Assembly: GCA_964605205.1 (NCBI GenBank) | Contig: CAZSBL010000004.1 | Location: 1 to 55,500 of the forward strand | DNA length: 55,500 nt | Reading direction: 5' to 3' | Source: an uncultured Gemmatimonadaceae bacterium | Lineage (GTDB): Bacteria; Gemmatimonadota; Gemmatimonadetes; Longimicrobiales; RSA9 | In this document: positions 22,386-32,167 of the stretch, piece by piece | Layout: every line of letters starts with the position of its first letter | Position numbering within the stretch: the stretch's first letter is position 1 | Made by a program: the position numbers and the translations under genes | The notes under the pieces: model-generated | Databases searched by the model: none | What the model saw: the letters and a program-made list of their open reading frames with translations, nothing else | Told to the model about the DNA's origin: nothing

Positions 22386-23471
22386 ATGAGCAAGCGCATC
22401 GCCATAAGCACCGGCGGCGGAGACGCCCCGGGGTTGAACGCCGTAATCCGGGCCGTGGTGCTGTCCGCGGTGAACCGGGGTTGGGAGGTCTACGGGATCC
22501 GGAAGGGCTACGGCGGGCTGCTGGGCGAGGACGAGATCGTGCGGCTCGACTCCCAGTCGGTCCGGGGGATCACGCACGTGGGTGGCACGATCCTGGGCAC
22601 CACGAACCGGGGCAACCCCTTCGAGTGGCCGGTGGAGGACGAGGGCGGGGTGGTCAAGGTCATCGACCGGAGCGACGAGGTCATCGAAGCGTTCCGGCAG
22701 CACGAGTTCGACGCCATGGTGGCCATCGGCGGCGACGGCTCGCTCCATATCGCCAATGAGCTGTGGAAGAAGGGGCTCCCGGTGGTGGGCGTTCCGAAGA
22801 CCATCGACAACGACCTGGCGGCCACCCAGGTCACCTTCGGGTTCCATACCGCGGTGCAGACGGCTTCCGAGGCCCTCGACAAGCTGCACTCCACGGCCGA
22901 GAGCCACGAGCGGGTCATGGTGGTGGAGCTCATGGGCCGCCACACCGGCTGGATCGCCCTGTTCGCCGGCGTCAGCGCCACGGCCGACGTGATCCTGATC
23001 CCGGAACTGCCGTACGACATCGAGAAGGTCTGCGACAAGATCCACGATCGGGACGCCAGCGGCCGCCTCTTCTCCATCGTGGTGGCGGCCGAGGGCGCGA
23101 AGCCGAAGGAGGGCTCGGCGTCGTTCGCGGAAGAGGCGAAGCCCGGGGCCGAGGCCCGCTACGGCGGGATCGCCGAGCGGGTCGCCCGGGAGATCTCGGA
23201 GCGGACGGGCAAGGAGACGCGGTCGCTGGTGCTGGGCCACCTCCAGCGGGGCGGCTCGCCCATCGCCTACGACCGGCTCGTCGCCCTCCGCTTCGGCGCC
23301 GCCGCCGCCCGCTACGTGGCCGATGGCGCCTACGGCACCATGGTGGCGCTGGACCCGCCCGGGGTCCGGGCCGTGCCGCTGGTCGAGGCCACCCGCCGGA
23401 CCAAGTCCGTGCCGCTCGACTCGGACGTCGTCACGACGGCCCGGGACCTGGGCATCTCGTTCGGGGACTGA
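22386..23471 (+). CDS. pfkA: 6-phosphofructokinase (mixed-substrate group III type)
   Basis: TGGGDAPG, GGTILGT, GGDGS (Gly, ATP type) with PKTIDND (Lys), MGRHTGW, LGHLQRGG. Confidence 0.95.
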   Translation: MSKRIAISTGGGDAPGLNAVIRAVVLSAVNRGWEVYGIRKGYGGLLGEDEIVRLDSQSVRGITHVGGTILGTTNRGNPFEWPVEDEGGVVKVIDRSDEVIEAFRQHEFDAMVAIGGDGSLHIANELWKKGLPVVGVPKTIDNDLAATQVTFGFHTAVQTASEALDKLHSTAESHERVMVVELMGRHTGWIALFAGVSATADVILIPELPYDIEKVCDKIHDRDASGRLFSIVVAAEGAKPKEGSASFAEEAKPGAEARYGGIAERVAREISERTGKETRSLVLGHLQRGGSPIAYDRLVALRFGAAAARYVADGAYGTMVALDPPGVRAVPLVEATRRTKSVPLDSDVVTTARDLGISFGD

Positions 23472-23502
23472 GCCGGCGGCGGCCGTGCCGCTCCCGGCGC
23501 CG

Positions 23503-23847
23503 CTAGTTGAGTCGGACCTCCACGCTCGAGCCCTGCTCCAGCACCACGGTCCGGCGGACCGTGCGGGTGTCCTCTTCGTCGGTGGCGACGATGGTGACGG
23601 TGGTGCCCATGCCACCGTCGAAGACGAAGCGTGACTCGGACTCGGCGGCCACGGTGCCCAGGAGGCGGGTGGCGGCGCCATCATCGTAGGAGACGATCAT
23701 GGGGTGCGGCATCTCGTTGATCACGGTCACGGCGTAGCGGGCGCCGAGGTCGCTGTCCATGGACATGCCGGCGCAGGCGGCGGTGAGGGTGAGGATCGCC
23801 GCGAGGGCCGGGAGTCGGAGTCGTCGCATAAGGGCCTGCTCGATCAT
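23503..23847 (-). CDS. Hypothetical lipoprotein
   Basis: Lipobox TAAC-AG after a hydrophobic stretch; ATGA overlap with the SDR stop. Confidence 0.75.
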   Translation of the reverse strand: MIEQALMRRLRLPALAAILTLTAACAGMSMDSDLGARYAVTVINEMPHPMIVSYDDGAATRLLGTVAAESESRFVFDGGMGTTVTIVATDEEDTRTVRRTVVLEQGSSVEVRLN

Positions 23848-24554
23848 GGGGTCCATTCCAGGGCGCGGAACCGCTCGCCGGTCACGCCGGATTCGTCGCT
23901 GGCCAGCCAGAGGAACACGCCGGTGGCGTCCTCGGGCGGCGCGGGCTTCATCGGGTCCTCGTCGGGGTACGCCTCGCGGCGCATCTCGGTCCGCAGCCGG
24001 CCCGGGTCCACGATATTGACGCGGATCCCGGCGTCTTCTTCTTCCAGCGCCAGGTTCTTCGACAGCGCCTCCACGCCCCACTTGCTGATGGCGTAGGCGC
24101 CCCAGCGGGCCCGGGCGATGTTCCCGACGCCGCTGGACACGTTGATAATGGAGCCCCGGCCGGCCTCGCGCATCCCCGGCAGCACGGCCAGCGTGGGGAT
24201 CAGAGTGCCGGTGAGGTTCACCTCGAGGACCTGGCGCCAGTCTTCGACGAGGTGCTCGCGGAGCGGGACCCGGGGGCCGAGGACCGATGCGTTGTTGATC
24301 AGCGTGCTCACCGGGCCGAACCGCTCGGCGGCCCGGGCCACCAGCGCCGCCACGTCACCCTCATGGGAGACGTCCACGGCGCCCCACTCGACCTCGGTGG
24401 TGTCCCGGAGCTTCCCGGCCACTTCGGCCATGGCCTCTTCGCCCCGGGCGCAGAGGACCAGGCGCGCGCCGGCGCCGGCGAACGCTTCGGCCAGCGCCCG
24501 GCCGAGCCCCCGGGACGCGCCGGTGATGAAGACCGTCTGGGCGGAGAGCATCAT
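23844..24554 (-). CDS. Short-chain dehydrogenase/reductase
   Basis: TGASRGLG, NNAS, NVSSG, YAISK, RVNIVDPG. Confidence 0.93.
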   Translation of the reverse strand: MMLSAQTVFITGASRGLGRALAEAFAGAGARLVLCARGEEAMAEVAGKLRDTTEVEWGAVDVSHEGDVAALVARAAERFGPVSTLINNASVLGPRVPLREHLVEDWRQVLEVNLTGTLIPTLAVLPGMREAGRGSIINVSSGVGNIARARWGAYAISKWGVEALSKNLALEEEDAGIRVNIVDPGRLRTEMRREAYPDEDPMKPAPPEDATGVFLWLASDESGVTGERFRALEWTP

Positions 24555-24925
24555 TCCGAGCCGTCCTCGATGACCCGGTCGACGGCCCGCATCCGGACGC
24601 CGATCTGGTGGAGCCGGTGGCGGGTGGTGAGGACGTTGGCGTAGTCGAAGTAGGCGTTGACGGGGTCATCGGCGCCCACGTACTGCTCGAGGATCAGCGC
24701 GTCCATCCGCTCCTTGAGGTGGCCGAGGACGGCGTCGAGGGCGGCCAGGAGCCGGGCCTGCTCCGCCGGTCCATCCACGGAGATATCGCCCCGGAGCGGC
24801 AGCCGCTCGTCGAGGGCGGCCATGGCCTCCGGGGGCGCGGCCACGCCGCCGCCGACCTCGCCGCGGATCCGTTCGGCGGCGGAGTTCAGCGCGGTGACCT
24901 CTTCGTATGAGAGCTCCAGGATCAT
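24551..24925 (-). CDS. Hypothetical protein
   Basis: Normal codon usage; ATGA overlap with the SDR gene. Confidence 0.75.
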   Translation of the reverse strand: MILELSYEEVTALNSAAERIRGEVGGGVAAPPEAMAALDERLPLRGDISVDGPAEQARLLAALDAVLGHLKERMDALILEQYVGADDPVNAYFDYANVLTTRHRLHQIGVRMRAVDRVIEDGSE

Positions 24926-25003
24926 CCTTCTCGCGCGTCTCGGGTTCGGGTCCCTGCGCCCATTCCTGCGTTCACGATACGTGCCAGCCGCGCGGGGGTT
25001 CCG

Positions 25004-25762
25004 TCAATCACCGTCGCCGCCACCGGGGCCGGCGCCGAGCCAGTCCGCCAGCACCAGCCCGGCCAGGAGGTCGAGGATGGTGTGGGCGATCATGGACGGG
25101 TACACGCTGCCGGTGAGCAGGAACGGCGCGGTGAGGAGGAGCCCGAGGAGCACCACCCGGACCACCCCGACCATGCCCTGGTAGGCGTGGGTCACCGCGA
25201 ACGCGGCCACGCTGACCGTCACGGCTACCGCCATGCTGCCGGAGGCCTGGTGGAGCACGCCGATCAGGAAGCTGCGGAAGATCAGCTCCTCGGCGATCCC
25301 GGCGGAGACGGAGAGCCCGGCGAAGGCGATCTTCTCCGACGTGCTCCGGGGGATCAGGTAGTCGACCAGCTCGCTCTCGGAGATCCGGAGCGCCCGGCCC
25401 AGCGCCATGATCCCGAGTCCGCCGAGCACGGTGAGGGCGGCGGCGCCCAGCAGCACGGCCGGAGACATCATCTCGATCCGGAGGTCGGCGCGGGTCAGGT
25501 CGCCGTGGCGGGCCGCCAGCATGGCCAGGGCGGCCAGGACCCAGACGGAGAGGGCGGAGGAGAAGTAGACGCTCTCGCGCTCCGCGTCGTCCGGGAGCCG
25601 GATCAGGAGCCGGGCCTGGAGGATCATGAGCGCGGGGAGCGGGCCCAGCAGGAATGTGGTCAGCGTACGGGCGGGCCAGGCGATCCCGGCCAGGCTCCAC
25701 CAGATGACGAGGGTGGCCAGGAGCGTCAGGAGCCCGAGGACGTGGCCCAGCCGCCGGTTCAC
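25004..25762 (-). CDS. CPBP family intramembrane metalloprotease (Abi/CAAX protease-like)
   Basis: AGIAEELIFRS, FAVTH, AHTILD; multiple TM helices. Confidence 0.9.
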   Translation of the reverse strand: MNRRLGHVLGLLTLLATLVIWWSLAGIAWPARTLTTFLLGPLPALMILQARLLIRLPDDAERESVYFSSALSVWVLAALAMLAARHGDLTRADLRIEMMSPAVLLGAAALTVLGGLGIMALGRALRISESELVDYLIPRSTSEKIAFAGLSVSAGIAEELIFRSFLIGVLHQASGSMAVAVTVSVAAFAVTHAYQGMVGVVRVVLLGLLLTAPFLLTGSVYPSMIAHTILDLLAGLVLADWLGAGPGGGDGD

Positions 25763-25769
25763 GCCGCGC

Positions 25770-26672
25770 TCACTTCAGCCACCGCCGCGCCACGGGGACC
25801 AGGAGCCCGATCAGGAGCCCGGTCCCGAGCCCGACCGTGGTGTCGATGGCGTAATGGATCCCGGAATAGACCGCGCCGAAGGCGATCCCCAGGGTGCCGA
25901 GGGCCAGGATCGGCGCGGCCGCCGGGAGGTGCCGGACCGCGTTCGTCACCTGGACCGCCGCCAGCGCCGTGTGCGACGACGGGAACGCGGTCCCCGAGCT
26001 GGCGCCGCTGCCGAGGATGAACTGCACCGTGCGGTACATCGGCCCCGCCGACTGGGGCTCGCCCGGTGGCGGGAAGAGGAAGTAGGGCCCCTTCACCGGG
26101 AAGGTGATGAAGACGGTGTAGTGGACGGCGAAGCCGAGCATCATCCCGAACAGCGTGTCCACGAGCGCGTCCCGGCCCCGGCGGGCGTAGACCACCACGG
26201 GATAGACGTACAGGATCAGATAGTACGAGAGGTACGCGAAGTGGAGCGGCTCGGAGAGGAGCAGGGAGGTGAAGCGCCGGGGGAAGGTGACCGCCACCTG
26301 CGTCCCGAAGACCGCCGCCTCCCACTGCTGCACCAGCGCGTCGAAGTAATGGCCGCCCCAGATGGACTGGTTCAGCAGCGGCAGCTCCCAGTACAGGAAG
26401 GGCAGCAGGAGCAGCGGGTACCCGTCGGCGACGATGGCCGCCGTCCGGCGGAGCGGGTCCGGCCACCGCCGGTCTGGCTCGCCACGGGCCCACCGCCGGA
26501 GCCGCTCCCACCCTCCCGTGAGGAGCGCGCCGCCGAGGGCCAGGTGCGCGGCCACCAGGAGCGGCCAGAGCGCCGGCCGGTGGGGGAACGCGTAGGCCAG
26601 GGCGGCCAGGACGAGGTACCCGCCGACCACGCGGTCGAGGGGCCGGGCGGGTCTAGGCGAGCTCCCGTCCAT
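25770..26672 (-). CDS. PAP2/AUR1-like membrane phosphoesterase or phosphotransferase
   Basis: FPVKGP, AFPSSH, GIHYAID and FAYLSYY, an AUR1/PAP2_3-type layout. Confidence 0.85.
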   Translation of the reverse strand: MDGSSPRPARPLDRVVGGYLVLAALAYAFPHRPALWPLLVAAHLALGGALLTGGWERLRRWARGEPDRRWPDPLRRTAAIVADGYPLLLLPFLYWELPLLNQSIWGGHYFDALVQQWEAAVFGTQVAVTFPRRFTSLLLSEPLHFAYLSYYLILYVYPVVVYARRGRDALVDTLFGMMLGFAVHYTVFITFPVKGPYFLFPPPGEPQSAGPMYRTVQFILGSGASSGTAFPSSHTALAAVQVTNAVRHLPAAAPILALGTLGIAFGAVYSGIHYAIDTTVGLGTGLLIGLLVPVARRWLK

Positions 26673-27777
26673 ACACGCGATACGTCTTGAACACGTATGC
26701 CCCCATCCGCTCCATCCCCCGGCGCATCCCCCAGTTGTCCTCGAGGATCCAGCCGGCCTCGGCCCGGTGGATCCCGGCGCCGGTGCCCTGCTCGAACATG
26801 TGCAGGTAGAAGAGGGCGTCGATCCCCTTGCGGCGGTACGCCGGCTTGAGCCCCAGCGTGAAGACGCGGAGCTGGTCGATCTTCCGCCGGTGCCAGAGCA
26901 GCTTGAGCCAGCCGAAGGGGAAGAGCCGGCCGTTCAGGTGCTTCAGCACCCGGTTGTAGTCCGGGAGCGCCAGCGCGAAGCCCACGGGCTCGCTGCCGAC
27001 CTCCGCGATGACGGCGTACCGCTCGTCGATGATCGGCTTCAGCTCCTGGCCCAGGTGCTCGATCTCCGCGTCGGTCAGCGGCGCGAAGCCCCAGTTCTTC
27101 TCCCACGCGGCGTTGTAGATCTCCTTCACCAGCCGGATCTCCCGGTCGAGACGCTTCAGCTCGATCTGACGGAGCCGCAGCCCGTCGATCTTGCTGGTCA
27201 TCCGCTTCACCCCCCGCACCAGCCGCTCCGGCGGCGCATCGGCCTCGAGGCGGTACGAGAGGAGGTCCTTCGCCTTGTCCCACCCCGCCGCCTCGAAGAG
27301 CGTCGGGTAGTACGGCGGGTTGTGCCCCATGAGCAGGACGGGCGGCGTGCCGTAGTTGTCGAGGAGGACGCCGGGGCCGTACAGCTCGTCGTTGGTGGAG
27401 AGGTTAAACGGGCCGATGGCCTCGGCCTGCCCGCGCTCCCGCAGCCAGTCGGCGGCGGTCTCGAGCAGGAGCCCGGCCACCGCCGGGTCATCGACGCACT
27501 CGAACAGCCCGATGAAGCCGGTGCGGGTGTCGTGGAACGCGTTGTAGCGGTGGTTCACGGCCGCGGCGATCCGGCCGACCACCTCGTCATGGCGGAGGGC
27601 CAGGAAGAACTCGGTGTCGGCGTGCTCGTGGAACGGGTGCTCGCGGCGCACGAGGGTCCGGACATCGGCTTTCAGCGGCGGGACCCACGCGGGGTCGTCG
27701 GCGTAGATCCGCCAGGGCAGCTCGATGAACCGCTTCTCGCTCGCCGGGTCCCGGACCGGCACCACCAGGGTGCCCAT
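26653..27777 (-). CDS. GNAT-like N-acyltransferase, bacterial ceramide synthase (bCerS)-like
   Basis: FIELPWRIY.DDPAWVPPL, VVGRIAA, GFIGLFE, HNPPYY, AWEKNWGF, WILEDN; adjacent to spt. Confidence 0.75.
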   Translation of the reverse strand: MGTLVVPVRDPASEKRFIELPWRIYADDPAWVPPLKADVRTLVRREHPFHEHADTEFFLALRHDEVVGRIAAAVNHRYNAFHDTRTGFIGLFECVDDPAVAGLLLETAADWLRERGQAEAIGPFNLSTNDELYGPGVLLDNYGTPPVLLMGHNPPYYPTLFEAAGWDKAKDLLSYRLEADAPPERLVRGVKRMTSKIDGLRLRQIELKRLDREIRLVKEIYNAAWEKNWGFAPLTDAEIEHLGQELKPIIDERYAVIAEVGSEPVGFALALPDYNRVLKHLNGRLFPFGWLKLLWHRRKIDQLRVFTLGLKPAYRRKGIDALFYLHMFEQGTGAGIHRAEAGWILEDNWGMRRGMERMGAYVFKTYRVYGRELA

Positions 27778-27796
27778 GCCTACAGGGTGCCCATGC

Positions 27797-28981
27797 CTAC
27801 AGGACGGCCATGGCCTTCCCGACCTTCGCGAAGGCGTCCAGCACCTGGTCGATGTGCTCGTCCTCGTGGGTGGCCATGAGGGAGATCCGGAGCCGGCACG
27901 AGTCCTCCGGCACCGCCGGCGGCGTCACCGGGTTCGTGAATACGCCGGCGTCGAACAACTCCTTCCAGAAGACCAGCATCCGGTCCAGCTCACCGATCAC
28001 CACCGGCACCACCGGCGTCTCGCTTTCGCCGATGTCGTAGCCGAGGCCCTTGAGCCCTTCCTGCATCCGGCGGGTGTTCCGCCAGAGCCGCTGGATCCGC
28101 TCCGGCTCTTCCTTCAGTACGTCCAGGGCGGCCTGCACCGTGGCCACCGCGGACGGCGGCATGCTGGCACTGAAGATCAGCGGCCGGGCGTGGTGCTTCA
28201 GGTAGTGGATCACCACTTCCGGGCCCGCCACCACGCCGCCGATGGAGGCCAGCGACTTCGAGAAGGTGGTGATGATCAGCCCCACCTCGTCGGTCAACCC
28301 GAAGTGTTCTGCGGTCCCGGCGCCCGTCTCGCCCAGCACGCCGAAGGCGTGGGCGTCGTCCACCACCACCCTGGCGTGGTACCGCTGGCCGAGCTCCACC
28401 AGCCCCGGCAGGTCCACGATGTCGCCCTCCATGGAGAAGATACCGTCGGCGATGATCATCTTTCCCGCCTCCGCCGGCACCTTCCGGAGCCGTCGCTCCA
28501 GGTCCTCCATGTCATTGTGGTTGTACTTGTGGGTCTCCCCGTGAGAGAGACGGCAGCCGTCCACGATGCTCGCGTGGTTGAGGCGGTCGCTGAAGATGTG
28601 CTCGTTGCGCCCCACCAGGCCGGCGATGACGCCCAGATTGGTCTGGAACCCGGTGCTGAAGATCAGCGCCTCTTCCTTGCCCAGGAACTCGGCCAGATCG
28701 CGCTCCAGCTTCTGGTGCAGGTCCAGGGTGCCGTTCAGGAAGCGGCTGCCCGTGCACCCGCTGCCATACCGACGCAGCGCCTCGTCGGCCGCCGCCAGCA
28801 CCTTCGGATGATGTGTGAGGCCCAGGTAGTTGTTGGACCCCACCATGATCTTCCGGCGTCCCTCGACCACCACCACGGTATCGTGGGAGTCCTCGATGGC
28901 GCGGAAGTACGGGTAGAACCCTGCGGCCTGGACCTCCCGCGCCTGCGTGTAGTTACGGCATTTGTCGAACAGACTCATCAA
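27797..28981 (-). CDS. spt: Serine palmitoyltransferase (alpha-oxoamine synthase family)
   Basis: FYPYF, GSNNYLGL, SRFLNGT, NHASIVDG, DDAHAFG, TFSKS (PLP Lys) and IFSASMPP favour SPT over BioF/Kbl. Confidence 0.85.
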   Translation of the reverse strand: MMSLFDKCRNYTQAREVQAAGFYPYFRAIEDSHDTVVVVEGRRKIMVGSNNYLGLTHHPKVLAAADEALRRYGSGCTGSRFLNGTLDLHQKLERDLAEFLGKEEALIFSTGFQTNLGVIAGLVGRNEHIFSDRLNHASIVDGCRLSHGETHKYNHNDMEDLERRLRKVPAEAGKMIIADGIFSMEGDIVDLPGLVELGQRYHARVVVDDAHAFGVLGETGAGTAEHFGLTDEVGLIITTFSKSLASIGGVVAGPEVVIHYLKHHARPLIFSASMPPSAVATVQAALDVLKEEPERIQRLWRNTRRMQEGLKGLGYDIGESETPVVPVVIGELDRMLVFWKELFDAGVFTNPVTPPAVPEDSCRLRISLMATHEDEHIDQVLDAFAKVGKAMAVL

Positions 28982-29008
28982 ACCCCCGATCTCATATGCT
29001 TCAGCGAC

Positions 29009-29971
29009 TCACAGCCAGCCGTACGCCCGGTACCACGCGGCGGTTTCCCGGAGGCCGTCCGCCAGCGGGATCCGGGCCTCGAAGCCCAGCTCCCGACGGG
29101 CCGTCGCCGTCTCGCACAGCCACTCCGCCAACAGCTCCTTCGCTTTGTCCCGGTCGAAGATGACCGGGCGGCGCGTCCGGCGGGCGATGGCTTCCGACAC
29201 CGCCGCCGCCCCCTTCACCGCCGCCGCGGGCACCCGGATCCGGACCCCTGTCCGGTCCATCACCCGCGCCATCATGTCCAACAGCTCGCTCCAGCGGTAG
29301 GCCCGGGGCTCGGCCACGTGGTAGACGCCCGTGGCGTCCGCCGCCGCCGCCGCCATCATCGCCTCCGCCAGGTCCCGGGCGTGCACCAGCTGCAGCCGCC
29401 GGTCCGGCGGCCCCACCACCGGCAGCACCCCGAACCGCGCCAGCCGGAAGAACGTCAGCAGGTCCCGGTCCCCGGGGCCGTACACCGCCGGAGCCCGGAT
29501 CACCGCCGCGTCTGGCCACCCCTCCACCACGGCCTCGCCGGCCAGCTTGCTCCGGCCGTAGGCCGTGAGCGGCCGCGGCTCGTCGCCGGGTTCCACCGGC
29601 GTCCCATCCCGCGACGGCCCTACGGCCGCCATCGAGCTCAGGTACACGAGTCGGGCACCGCTGGTCTCCGCCTCCATGGCGGTGACCAGCCGCTCCGTGC
29701 CCTCCGCGTTGATCCTGTGAAACGTCTCGGCGTCCAGGGCGCGCGTCGCGGCGGCCATGTGGACCACCACGTCGGCGCCCGCCACCGCCCGACGCAGCGA
29801 GGCCCCGTCGCTCAGGCTCCCGACCACCGTCTCGAAGCCGTACCGTTCGAGGAGGGAGGTGTCGCTCGACTCCCGTACGAGAGCCCGCGCTCGGCCGACC
29901 CGCCGCGCCAGCACGTCCACGAGGTGCGACCCGACGAAGCCGGTCGCGCCGGTAATCAGGATATCCGTCAC
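29009..29971 (-). CDS. NAD-dependent epimerase/dehydratase (extended SDR), putative ceramide reductase CerR-like
   Basis: TGATGFVG, YGRSK, IRAPAVYGPGD; directly upstream of spt. Confidence 0.8.
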   Translation of the reverse strand: MTDILITGATGFVGSHLVDVLARRVGRARALVRESSDTSLLERYGFETVVGSLSDGASLRRAVAGADVVVHMAAATRALDAETFHRINAEGTERLVTAMEAETSGARLVYLSSMAAVGPSRDGTPVEPGDEPRPLTAYGRSKLAGEAVVEGWPDAAVIRAPAVYGPGDRDLLTFFRLARFGVLPVVGPPDRRLQLVHARDLAEAMMAAAAADATGVYHVAEPRAYRWSELLDMMARVMDRTGVRIRVPAAAVKGAAAVSEAIARRTRRPVIFDRDKAKELLAEWLCETATARRELGFEARIPLADGLRETAAWYRAYGWL

Positions 29972-30102
29972 AACGTGCCGTTGAAGGTGGGCGCCCCGTA
30001 ACGAAAAGGCAATGAACCGCCGGGGGCGGTGGGACGGGACTTGCACACTGAGACGGTGCCGAGCAGCTTCTTCGACCCCGAACTCGCGCACAGGAGGATT
30101 CC

Positions 30103-30381
30103 GTGGCGCTTCTCGACGAGCAGGAGATCCGCAGCCATCTCGACCGGCTGCACGGCTGGACCCGTGATGGAGACATGATCCGGAAGACGTTCACCCTGGA
30201 CTCGTTCCAGGAAGCCATCGACTTCGTGAACCGGATCGCCGAGCGGGCGGAGGCGGCCGGCCATCACCCGGACATCGACATCCGGTACGACCGCGTGGCG
30301 TGCGCCCTCTCGACGCACAGCGAGGGCGGCCTCACGAACAAGGACTTCGACATGGCCGCCCGGATCGAAGAGGTCCGTTAG
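30103..30381 (+). CDS. phhB: Pterin-4-alpha-carbinolamine dehydratase
   Basis: AGHHPDI, LSTHSEGGLT.KDFDMA. Confidence 0.95.
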   Translation: MALLDEQEIRSHLDRLHGWTRDGDMIRKTFTLDSFQEAIDFVNRIAERAEAAGHHPDIDIRYDRVACALSTHSEGGLTNKDFDMAARIEEVR

Positions 30382-30429
30382 CGGCCCGCGGTCGGCGGCC
30401 GGTGGCCGCCCCCCGGCGGTCACCGGGCC

Positions 30430-31749
30430 TCACCGCCCGTTCCCGGCCACGAGGGCGCCGACCACGTCCACGGCGTGATCCAGCTGCGCTTCCGTGATGG
30501 TCAGCGGGGGTGTAAACGCCAGCGCGGCCCCCTCCGGGAGGAGGATCACGCCCTCCCGCAGCGCGGCGGCCGCCAGCGCGGCGGCCGTCTTCTCGTCCGC
30601 GACCTCCAGCGCCCGCATGAGCCCCAGCCCCCGGGTGGACCGTGCGCCGGCGTGGGTCTGGACCAGCGCCCGGAGTCGCTCGTCGAGCCGGTCTCCGAGC
30701 TTGGCGGCCCGGGCCACCAGCCCCCGGCCCTCGATCTCGTCGAGCTGCGCCAGCGCGGCGGCGCACGTCACCGGGTTGCCCAGGAAGGTGCTGGTGTGGA
30801 TCGCCTCCCCGTCGGACGGCGGCCACGCCTCCATGACGGCGGGGTTGCCGATCACCGCGCTCAGCGGGAGCCCGCCGGCCAGCGACTTGCCCACCGTCAC
30901 GAGGTCCGGCACCACGCCCGTGTGCTGGCACGCGAACCACCGGCCGGTGCGGCCCAGCCCGGTGTAGATCTCGTCGGCGATGAGGAGCACGCCCTCCTCG
31001 TCGCAGAGCGTCCGCAGCCGGGTCAGGAAGTCCGGCGGTGGGACCACGATCCCGCCCCGCCCCTGCACCGGCTCGACGATCACCGCGCCCACCGGCGGGT
31101 CGCCCCGGATCGCGGTCCGCACCGCCTCCAGCGCCGCGTCGGTGGTCACGTCGCGCCGGCCGACCGGTGCCGCGCCATCGGCCGGGTAGGGGGCGAAGCG
31201 GACGCCGTCGAAGAGCTGGGCCTGGAACGGCGCCCGGAACCGGTGCCCGGCGGTGACGGCGAGGGCGCCGTACCCGAGGCCGTGGTAGCCGCCCTCGAAC
31301 GCCACGATCCCGGGCCGACCGGTGGCCAGTACGGCGGTCTTGAGCGCCGACTCCACCGCGTCGCTCCCGTTGGCCGAGAGGATGGAGACCGAGAGGTCGC
31401 CGGGGGCCAGCGCGGCCAGCCGCTCCAGCAGCTCGACCTTGATCTCCGCGGGGTGGACATCACCCATGGCGTGAGCCAGGCGCCGGAGCTGGGCCCCGGC
31501 GGCATCGGCCACCGCCGGGTTCCCGTGGCCCGCGGCACTCACGCCGAAGCCGGCGGTCAGGTCGATGTAGACATTGCCGTCGGCGTCCCGGACGTTGGCG
31601 CCGGCGGCCTCCGTCCAGAAGATCGGGCCCAGCTCGCCCACCGCGGTGATGTTGCGGGACTCGACGGCCGCCAGCCGCTCGGCCAGCGCCCGGGACTTCG
31701 GGCCGGGCACCGGTGTACGGAGGTCGGGGAGCGCTCCGCCCGGCGGCAT
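30430..31749 (-). CDS. Class III PLP aminotransferase (4-aminobutyrate aminotransferase-like)
   Basis: DADGNVYIDL, GSDAVESALK, YHG, EPVQGRGG, ADEIYTGLGRTG, GKSLAGG, HTSTFLGNP. Confidence 0.92.
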   Translation of the reverse strand: MPPGGALPDLRTPVPGPKSRALAERLAAVESRNITAVGELGPIFWTEAAGANVRDADGNVYIDLTAGFGVSAAGHGNPAVADAAGAQLRRLAHAMGDVHPAEIKVELLERLAALAPGDLSVSILSANGSDAVESALKTAVLATGRPGIVAFEGGYHGLGYGALAVTAGHRFRAPFQAQLFDGVRFAPYPADGAAPVGRRDVTTDAALEAVRTAIRGDPPVGAVIVEPVQGRGGIVVPPPDFLTRLRTLCDEEGVLLIADEIYTGLGRTGRWFACQHTGVVPDLVTVGKSLAGGLPLSAVIGNPAVMEAWPPSDGEAIHTSTFLGNPVTCAAALAQLDEIEGRGLVARAAKLGDRLDERLRALVQTHAGARSTRGLGLMRALEVADEKTAAALAAAALREGVILLPEGAALAFTPPLTITEAQLDHAVDVVGALVAGNGR

Positions 31750-31753
31750 CCGG

Positions 31754-32167
31754 TCAGTGCCGCTCGATGAGCCAGGTGACCAGGGCGCCGGCCAGGAGCC
31801 CGGCCACGAACGCCGTCCCCAGCGCCGGCCCGCTCCCGGCGGGCGGCAGTGCCCGGGGCCGGGTCTTCGGCTGCGTCGGGCCCCCGGCGGTGGTCTGCCC
31901 CTGGGCGGCGGCCTCAGTGGCCGCGGCGTCGAGCTCGGTCTCGTAGTCGCACGCGGGGCACTCCGCCTCCCCGTTCTCCAGCGCCGTCCTGTTGCGGTAC
32001 CCCAGCGGAGCCCCACATTCCGGGCAGTGGCGGCCCGCGGGGCGGGGGTCGATCCCCTCGTAGAGCGTGCGGCGCGAGAGGTCGAACTGGTCGGCGATCT
32101 CGGAGACCGATGCGTCGGTCTCCCAGTACAGCCGGTTCAGCTCCGTCTCGGTGCTTGGGTCCACCAT
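31754..32167 (-). CDS. Hypothetical protein: HTH-like N-terminus, CxxC-CxxC zinc ribbon, C-terminal TM anchor
   Basis: SVSEIADQFDLSRRTLY; CPECG..CPACD; C-terminal FVAGLLAGALVTWLI. Confidence 0.8.
   Translation of the reverse strand: MVDPSTETELNRLYWETDASVSEIADQFDLSRRTLYEGIDPRPAGRHCPECGAPLGYRNRTALENGEAECPACDYETELDAAATEAAAQGQTTAGGPTQPKTRPRALPPAGSGPALGTAFVAGLLAGALVTWLIERH

Follow-up and report, generated by a model that had tools for sequence, protein, structure and literature searches.

An AUR1-like PAP2_3 membrane protein beside predicted ceramide synthesis genes of a Gemmatimonadaceae bacterium: a candidate phospho-head-group transferase

Few bacterial genes that provide the head group of a sphingolipid are known; they include BT_1522 of Bacteroides, the phosphoglycerate genes of Caulobacter and two glycosyltransferases. 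Here we describe a gene at positions 25770-26672 on the minus strand of a 55,500-nucleotide window (the whole stretch of DNA that was analyzed), which encodes a 300-residue AUR1-like PAP2_3 membrane protein (P0001), a candidate ceramide phospho-head-group transferase. The window is contig C4 of the 3.6-Mb, 244-contig genome (94.5% complete, ~70% G+C) of an uncultured Gemmatimonadaceae bacterium (GenBank assembly GCA_964605205.1, contig CAZSBL010000004.1). Going by the names of homologs, it belongs to Gemmatimonadota, close to Longimicrobiales.

The closest described enzyme is Aur1, the catalytic subunit of the inositol-phosphoceramide (IPC) synthase of Saccharomyces cerevisiae, whose residues H255, H294 and D298 are the experimentally proven catalytic triad (PMC13133130). 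The D298-activated H294 forms a phospho-enzyme intermediate, and H255 activates the ceramide hydroxyl (PMC13133130). Among bacteria, BT_1522 of Bacteroides thetaiotaomicron is the sole AUR1 homolog with genetic proof; it acts on (dihydro)ceramide as a phosphatidylinositol (PI)-dihydroceramide synthase (PMC9246714). The pathway of Caulobacter crescentus has a three-gene ceramide core of serine palmitoyltransferase (Spt), bCerS and CerR, and CerR completes ceramide on the periplasmic side (PMC11087976). In this organism, CpgABC adds phosphoglycerate via a ceramide kinase and transferases, not via a PAP2 enzyme.

Our analysis indicates that the PAP2_3 gene probably provides the phospho-head-group transfer step in a ceramide operon with the order cerR-spt-bCerS-PAP2_3, its product being an Aur1-type lipid phosphotransferase with eight predicted transmembrane helices. 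A phosphate-linked sphingolipid is very probably among the lipids of this cell. The gene thereby extends a known pathway by one member rather than defining a new kind of system. In the literature searched, we found no report of a PAP2_3 gene of this type with bCerS in Gemmatimonadota, nor of sphingolipids in this phylum, for which the gene is a concrete and testable head-group candidate.

Relation of the PAP2_3 protein to Aur1

The open reading frame at 25770-26672 is a genuine gene. It comprises 300 codons, the ATG at 26672 is the furthest-upstream start codon of the frame, and its codon-position GC (0.70/0.50/0.96) is usual for genes of this ~70% GC genome. Homologs of the encoded protein were found down to E 3e-150. 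A later start at V15 is unlikely because the RPxDRxVGGY block at residues 10-19 is conserved in the homologs.

The initial annotation had proposed a comparison of the hidden Markov models PF14378 and PF01569, and this comparison favored PF14378, the family of Aur1, with 47.2 bits (E 2.9e-12; cutoff 27) versus 33.3 bits (cutoff 27.2) for PF01569. A profile built from 21 homologs and run against all PDB sequences retrieved yeast Aur1 first (E 3e-5), and the profile alignment placed AFPSxH and HYxxD onto the Aur1 segment that contains H255, H294 and D298. The AlphaFold (AF2) model of the protein (pLDDT 90.6, pTM 0.89) pointed to the same enzyme. Foldseek returned Aur1 chains (9vj4_A and 9ivc_A) at ranks 1 and 2 (E 9e-5 and 3e-4; ~306-310 aligned columns), followed by Bacillus subtilis PgpB and LpxE with partial coverage and, far lower, by SMSr. 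In VIA-align superpositions, Aur1 covered model residues 8-296 with Z scores of 15.5 and 15.4 (253 and 245 aligned residues), whereas LpxE (PDB 6ebu; Z 14.3) and PgpB (PDB 5jki; Z 14.0) aligned only from about residue 108 onward (108-300).

Architecture separates the two groups as well. Canonical PAP2 phosphatases such as LpxE (6ebu) and PgpB (5jki/4px7) share with the PAP2_3 protein a common six-helix core and the His-His-Asp triad, and they carry the motifs KxxxxxxRP and SRxxxxxHxxxD while lacking three N-terminal helices; the PAP2_3 protein is the reverse. These three helices, which are missing in the six-helix phosphatases, are present in the model as in Aur1. The predicted cytoplasmic loops contain 18 Lys and Arg in 52 residues and the predicted periplasmic loops 5 in 86. 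The model predicts eight transmembrane helices with both ends in the cytoplasm and with the motifs C2 and C3 on the periplasmic side, which is the topology of Aur1. A search of the protein atlas returned only generic PAP2 clusters.

The motifs likewise resemble those of Aur1. The C2 motif FPSSH (residues 230-234; 25971-25985, minus strand) and the C3 motif HYAID (residues 273-277; 25842-25856, minus strand), both recognized in the initial annotation, are present, and in the profile alignment H234 is the counterpart of Aur1 H255, while H273 and D277 correspond to H294 and D298. We aligned 81 sequences, namely the window protein and 80 relatives from genome contigs. H234, H273 and D277 are invariant in all 81, as are D111, S140, Y147 and the residues P192, V193, G195 and P196 of a family motif, FPVxGP (26085-26102, minus strand), which stands at the start of periplasmic loop 3, roughly at the canonical PAP2 C1 place. 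The C1 motif KxxxxxxRP, which was not evident to the initial annotation either, is absent from it and from 80/80 relatives. The C1-equivalent positions are occupied by C/H/S and F/L/M, with no K or R in any of the 81 sequences, and the position six residues before H273, where SRxxxxxHxxxD has its arginine, is A, T or V throughout. Measured against the canonical PAP2 pattern (C1 KxxxxxxRP, C2 PSGH, C3 SRxxxxxHxxxD), only the His, His and Asp are kept. The family thus appears, by its conserved residues, to keep the nucleophile machinery without the phosphatase residues that grip a terminal phosphate, the same pattern as in Aur1.

Residue 197 (26082-26084), directly after FPVxGP, is Arg in 58/81 sequences and Tyr in P0001 and its closest relatives. 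Where it occurs, as in most of the family, Arg197 might stand in as a phosphate ligand.

The same genome holds one other PF14378 match, at 43234-45327 of contig C5. It was rejected as a paralog of the PAP2_3 gene, since its motifs, FPSGH and SRAYLGVHYPGD (SRxxxxxHxxxD), are those of a canonical PAP2 phosphatase. Its PAP2 domain forms the C-terminal end of a 697-codon open frame, a length that probably reflects a start called too far upstream in high-GC DNA. Because the genome encodes this canonical PAP2 protein, the missing basic residues are a property of the PAP2_3 family and not of the organism.

The protein and Aur1 (PDB 9vj3, 9vj4, 9ivc) thus share eight transmembrane helices with both ends cytosolic, an active site on the far membrane side (predicted here), AFPSxH and HYxxD with the His-His-Asp triad, the lack of a C1 motif and of a C3 arginine, and a Tyr four residues before the C3 His. 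They differ in that identity is just 13-15% and length 300 versus 401 residues, and in that no Kei1-like partner is known here, no search aimed at one having been made; moreover, the PAP2_3 protein is bacterial, is encoded in an operon, has a predicted periplasm-facing active site, and belongs to a family with invariant motifs of its own (FPVxGP, S140-x3-H144-x2-Y147 and D111). The distance to Bacteroides is also considerable. NF052609, the BT_1522 model and the best NCBIfam match, scored 24 bits versus a cutoff of 480 and matched residues 219-287 only. The PAP2_3 protein is therefore not a BT_1522 ortholog, as both this score and the restriction of the match to the C2-C3 region indicate.

The initial annotation had assigned the protein to an AUR1/sphingomyelin-synthase branch. 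The AUR1 half of this assignment is borne out by the eight predicted helices and the full-length match, but the sphingomyelin-synthase half is not. SMS1, SMS2 and SMSr (PF14360; PDB 8ijq) belong to the same superfamily, have an HYxxD-type C3 motif and carry out the kind of reaction proposed here, moving a head group from a glycerophospholipid to ceramide; they have six transmembrane helices, however, and the PAP2_3 protein has a predicted eight. PF14360 (PAP2_C) scored 10.7 bits (E 0.83), below its cutoff of 27, and SMSr aligned over 190 residues at Z 10.3. The PF14360 score and the low fold rank led us to reject a sphingomyelin synthase.

Linkage to ceramide genes

On the minus strand, the PAP2_3 gene belongs to a run of closely spaced co-directional genes, backed by codon-position GC and domain scans, in the order aminotransferase, cerR-like, spt, bCerS-like GNAT, PAP2_3, CPBP, 124-aa gene and classical short-chain dehydrogenase/reductase (SDR). 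The gene at 27797-28981 (minus strand; 394 aa) matches the bacterial serine palmitoyltransferases 8guh and 3a2b at 436 bits, compared with 274 bits for KBL and 241 for BioF among solved structures, and scores 553 bits with NF047600, just below the cutoff of 640. Sequence comparison makes a convincing case that its product is a serine palmitoyltransferase, closer to proven enzymes of this kind than to KBL or BioF. Between it and the PAP2_3 gene lies a putative bCerS-like GNAT acyltransferase gene (26653-27777, minus strand; P0002, 374 aa), which matches PF00583 at 26.5 bits and whose homologs adjoin spt in most loci; for P0002 we found no relative among solved structures and no NCBIfam match. 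On the other side of spt, a gene at 29009-30091 (minus strand; 360 aa) encodes a putative CerR-like extended SDR, an epimerase-family reductase (PF01370, 110 bits) that is conserved in the cluster. The names bCerS-like and CerR-like are provisional and reflect domain type, size and conserved position only. With this qualification, the three genes correspond to the ceramide core of Caulobacter.

As the initial annotation had noted, the two genes overlap: the last 20 nt of the bCerS-like gene are also the first 20 nt of PAP2_3 (26653-26672, minus strand; ATGGACGGGAGCTCGCCTAG). Overlaps of 1-11 nt between the PAP2_3 start codon and the stop of the preceding gene recur in relatives, both behind bCerS and behind CerR. 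The 20-nt overlap suggests translational coupling of the two genes.

The linkage extends well beyond this genome. The PAP2_3 family numbers 1275 representative clusters at E <= 1e-3 and 553 at E <= 1e-10, and is widespread in soil and sediment bacteria. Among the best 80 genome loci with a homolog, the homolog adjoins bCerS, Spt or CerR homologs in ~65, in four gene orders: the order of the window (aminotransferase-CerR-Spt-bCerS-PAP2-CPBP-hyp-SDR); Spt-bCerS-CerR-PAP2; a divergent pair of Spt-bCerS and PAP2; and bCerS / PAP2 with Spt and CerR downstream on the other strand. Moreover, bCerS was present in 18/18 sampled genomes with a strong homolog, compared with 10/25 with a weak match or none. 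The unlinked members group into a few clades of the family tree: Poribacteria together with one further locus, L037/L044/L045, and L041/L072. For the clade of the window gene the link to ceramide is therefore strong, but it does not extend to every distant member.

Proposed reaction and head-group donor

The initial annotation had concluded that the cell makes a phosphosphingolipid, and the evidence above speaks for this conclusion: PF14378 outscores PF01569, Aur1 is the best match by both sequence and fold, the triad is invariant while the phosphatase Lys and Arg are missing, and the linkage to ceramide genes persists through rearrangements. The acceptor, the donor and the chemistry, including the transfer to ceramide itself, are inferred, the mechanism by analogy with Aur1. 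The active site would lie on the periplasmic face of the inner membrane, where D277 would activate H273 for attack on the phosphodiester of a glycerophospholipid donor. Diacylglycerol would then depart and leave a phospho-head-group-histidine intermediate; H234 would activate the C1 hydroxyl of ceramide, which would receive the phospho-head group to yield a phosphosphingolipid. The periplasmic last step of ceramide synthesis in Caulobacter fits such an outward-facing head-group enzyme.

For the donor, we tentatively favor PI, which makes IPC the likeliest single product, although we hold this with less than even confidence. PI is ranked first because the closest characterized relatives, Aur1 and BT_1522, use it and because PI genes are present. 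On contig C9, a PIP-synthase-like CDP-alcohol transferase (NF045883 138 bits, NF040950 152 bits, both slightly below their cutoffs) directly precedes the gene for inositol-phosphate synthase (MIPS) (G000:C9:3469-5428; locus L009). This differs from Bacteroides, where BT_1522 lies within an inositol-lipid cluster (MIPS, PIP synthase, PgpA-like); here, the PAP2_3 gene is part of the ceramide operon and is on a different contig from MIPS and the PIP-synthase-like gene. Two further CDP-alcohol transferases of the genome (G000:C18:4609-5172 and G000:C33:25157-26074) have their best, but weak, matches (41-50 bits) to inositol-phosphate lipid synthase models. MIPS was found in 40/41 genomes with a strong homolog and in 62/66 of the Gemmatimonadota genomes sampled. 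Its phyletic profile was dropped as a test of the donor, being near-universal in the phylum and thus permissive rather than diagnostic. The genome tallies include the unpublished G096 (MIPS and bCerS counts) as well as G056, G181 and G156, and their removal alters no conclusion.

Several observations weigh against an Aur1-type transfer to ceramide or against PI as its donor. The Z scores of Aur1 and of LpxE and PgpB differ by only about 1 unit, and because these values are close, it is coverage and architecture that favor Aur1. Some family members are unlinked to ceramide genes, and two complete Poribacteria chromosomes (L057, L083) with a 32%-identical member gave no bCerS match. Across the 80 loci, genes for inositol or any other head group are not linked to the operon, and neither MIPS nor PIP synthase occurs within 8 kb of any homolog. 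MIPS is also present in 22/25 genomes without a strong homolog, so that it does not track the gene, and no MIPS was found in one gene-carrying genome (G027; 99% complete, 140 contigs). Thin-layer chromatography descriptions of cultured Gemmatimonadota list phosphatidylethanolamine (PE), phosphatidylglycerol (PG), diphosphatidylglycerol and an aminolipid, with no PI and no sphingolipid. Finally, the low score with the Bacteroides PI-dihydroceramide synthase model (24 bits against a cutoff of 480) counts here as well.

The most probable alternative keeps the same chemistry with PG (or cardiolipin) as the donor, giving ceramide-phosphoglycerol, a product known from the lipids of Porphyromonas gingivalis. 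The genome of the window, the sole one scanned for this gene, contains pgsA (TIGR00560, 116 bits; cutoff 109). Among the sampled gene carriers, some gave no match to the marker gene for PI (MIPS in G027) and others none to that for PE (phosphatidylserine decarboxylase, Psd, in genus g1 and family f7), and no such gap is known for PG within the one genome scanned. The PI-specific Bacteroides model, moreover, is only distantly matched by the protein. On the other hand, the MIPS gap in G027 could be an assembly gap, since this genome is in 140 contigs; the closest characterized relatives all use PI, and the literature offered no PG-using ceramide transferase for comparison. PG is therefore our second choice of donor, at a probability well short of that of PI.

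A different possibility is that the protein is not a transferase at all and acts as a lipid phosphate phosphatase on ceramide-1-phosphate, on a sphingoid-base-1-phosphate or on a substrate of the PgpB, LpxE or C55 pyrophosphate (C55-PP) type. In favor of this, the PF01569 score lies above its cutoff as well, the core of the model superposes on LpxE and B. subtilis PgpB at the Z scores given above, and the His-His-Asp triad is common to all PAP2 enzymes. Three DAGK_cat lipid kinases elsewhere in the genome could in principle make ceramide-1-phosphate, and most family members have Arg197, though P0001 does not. In contrast, all 81 sequences are devoid of the basic residues that bind the phosphomonoester, namely Lys and Arg of C1 and Arg of C3, and the three additional N-terminal helices match Aur1 and not the phosphatases. 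Furthermore, no kinase gene is linked to the operon in the 80 loci, and a canonical PAP2 phosphatase is already encoded on contig C5. We consider a phosphatase improbable, more so than a transferase that uses PG.

Returning to the proposed transferase, PE is the least favored of the three donors. With PE, the protein would be a ceramide-phosphoethanolamine (CPE) synthase acting like SMSr. Among the phosphosphingolipids of bacteria, CPE is the most common; cultured Gemmatimonadota have PE as a major lipid, and Psd is present in 32/41 genomes that carry the PAP2_3 gene. However, Psd was not found in the genome of the window (G000) or in the other genome of its genus (G166), both ~95% complete, nor in 7/7 sampled genomes of family f7, five of them single-contig, although the PAP2_3 gene is retained there. 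No pssA-type match was obtained among the five CDP-alcohol transferases of the genome of the window, and the fold of SMSr and PF14360 fit the protein poorly. The lineages of genus g1 and family f7 may be without PE. It thus seems unlikely that PE is the donor in this genus, and a PE-using enzyme has a low probability, below that of a phosphatase. We rank the donors as PI, then PG, with PE a distant third. The initial annotation had left the head group open; in this genus, gene content shifts the choice toward phosphoinositol or phosphoglycerol and makes phosphoethanolamine less likely.

Least probable of all is a phosphotransferase with a non-ceramide acceptor, such as another membrane lipid or a glycan, at an incidental position in the operon: the Poribacteria members (~32-36% identity) and the L037/L044/L045 clade do lie away from ceramide genes, and two complete Poribacteria chromosomes are without a bCerS match, but the clade of the window gene keeps its linkage through four rearrangements, bCerS occurs in every sampled genome with a strong homolog, and the 20-nt overlap with bCerS argues for co-expression. 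The distant members themselves may use another acceptor. Those of L057, L083, L037, L044 and L045, at ~32-45% identity, are away from any ceramide gene; in a third Poribacteria genome, Spt-bCerS lies 177 kb off on the same contig.

If the PAP2_3 protein is the proposed transferase, phosphosphingolipids could be counted among the predicted membrane constituents of Gemmatimonadota, it would become possible to assign lipid biomarkers, and a small bacterial model of the Aur1 reaction would be available. A bolder proposal, which we regard as rather doubtful, is that the gene is the founding member of a large uncharacterized bacterial Aur1-type branch (the 553 clusters at E <= 1e-10) that makes the phosphosphingolipids of Gemmatimonadota and neighboring phyla. 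The branch would consist of periplasmic IPC synthases or of enzymes for a head group that has no assigned gene yet, e.g., phosphoglycerol. In that case, the eight-helix architecture of Aur1 would be widespread in bacteria, which bears on the origin of the eukaryotic enzyme.

Other genes of the run and of related loci

Downstream of the PAP2_3 gene, a CPBP (Rce1-like) intramembrane protease-family protein is encoded at 25004-25762 (minus strand; PF02517, 61.5 bits). This gene begins 7 nt past the PAP2_3 stop, and it follows the PAP2_3 gene in most Longimicrobiales-type loci but not in the other arrangements. It is followed by a gene for a conserved 124-aa protein (24551-24925, minus strand), which has no family match and homologs in ~20 loci, and by the last gene of the co-directional run, a classical SDR of the YciK/FabG-like kind (23844-24554, minus strand; PF00106 179 bits, NF006509 188 bits). 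These two genes overlap by 4 nt, and both recur in related loci. A scan of 23400-30600 for promoters and terminators found no promoter-like site and no useful terminator.

At the other end of the run, 338 nt upstream of cerR, lies a gene for a class-III aminotransferase (30430-32016, minus strand; 528 aa; PF00202, 347.5 bits) with ~100-130 additional N-terminal residues. It is a conserved neighbor in ~28 loci of the same arrangement, and a role in the sphingolipid pathway is possible.

Clustering of the ORFs of all 80 loci showed that, besides the pathway genes, a sigma factor, a PDZ protein, an SLT transglycosylase, PFK, a polysaccharide-export protein and an LPG_synthase_TM protein recur. 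The gene for the last of these, which is MprF flippase-like, is found near sphingolipid genes at L062:10635-11597 and in ~10 similar loci with the arrangement bCerS / PAP2 / Spt ... CerR, and its product is a candidate lipid flippase.

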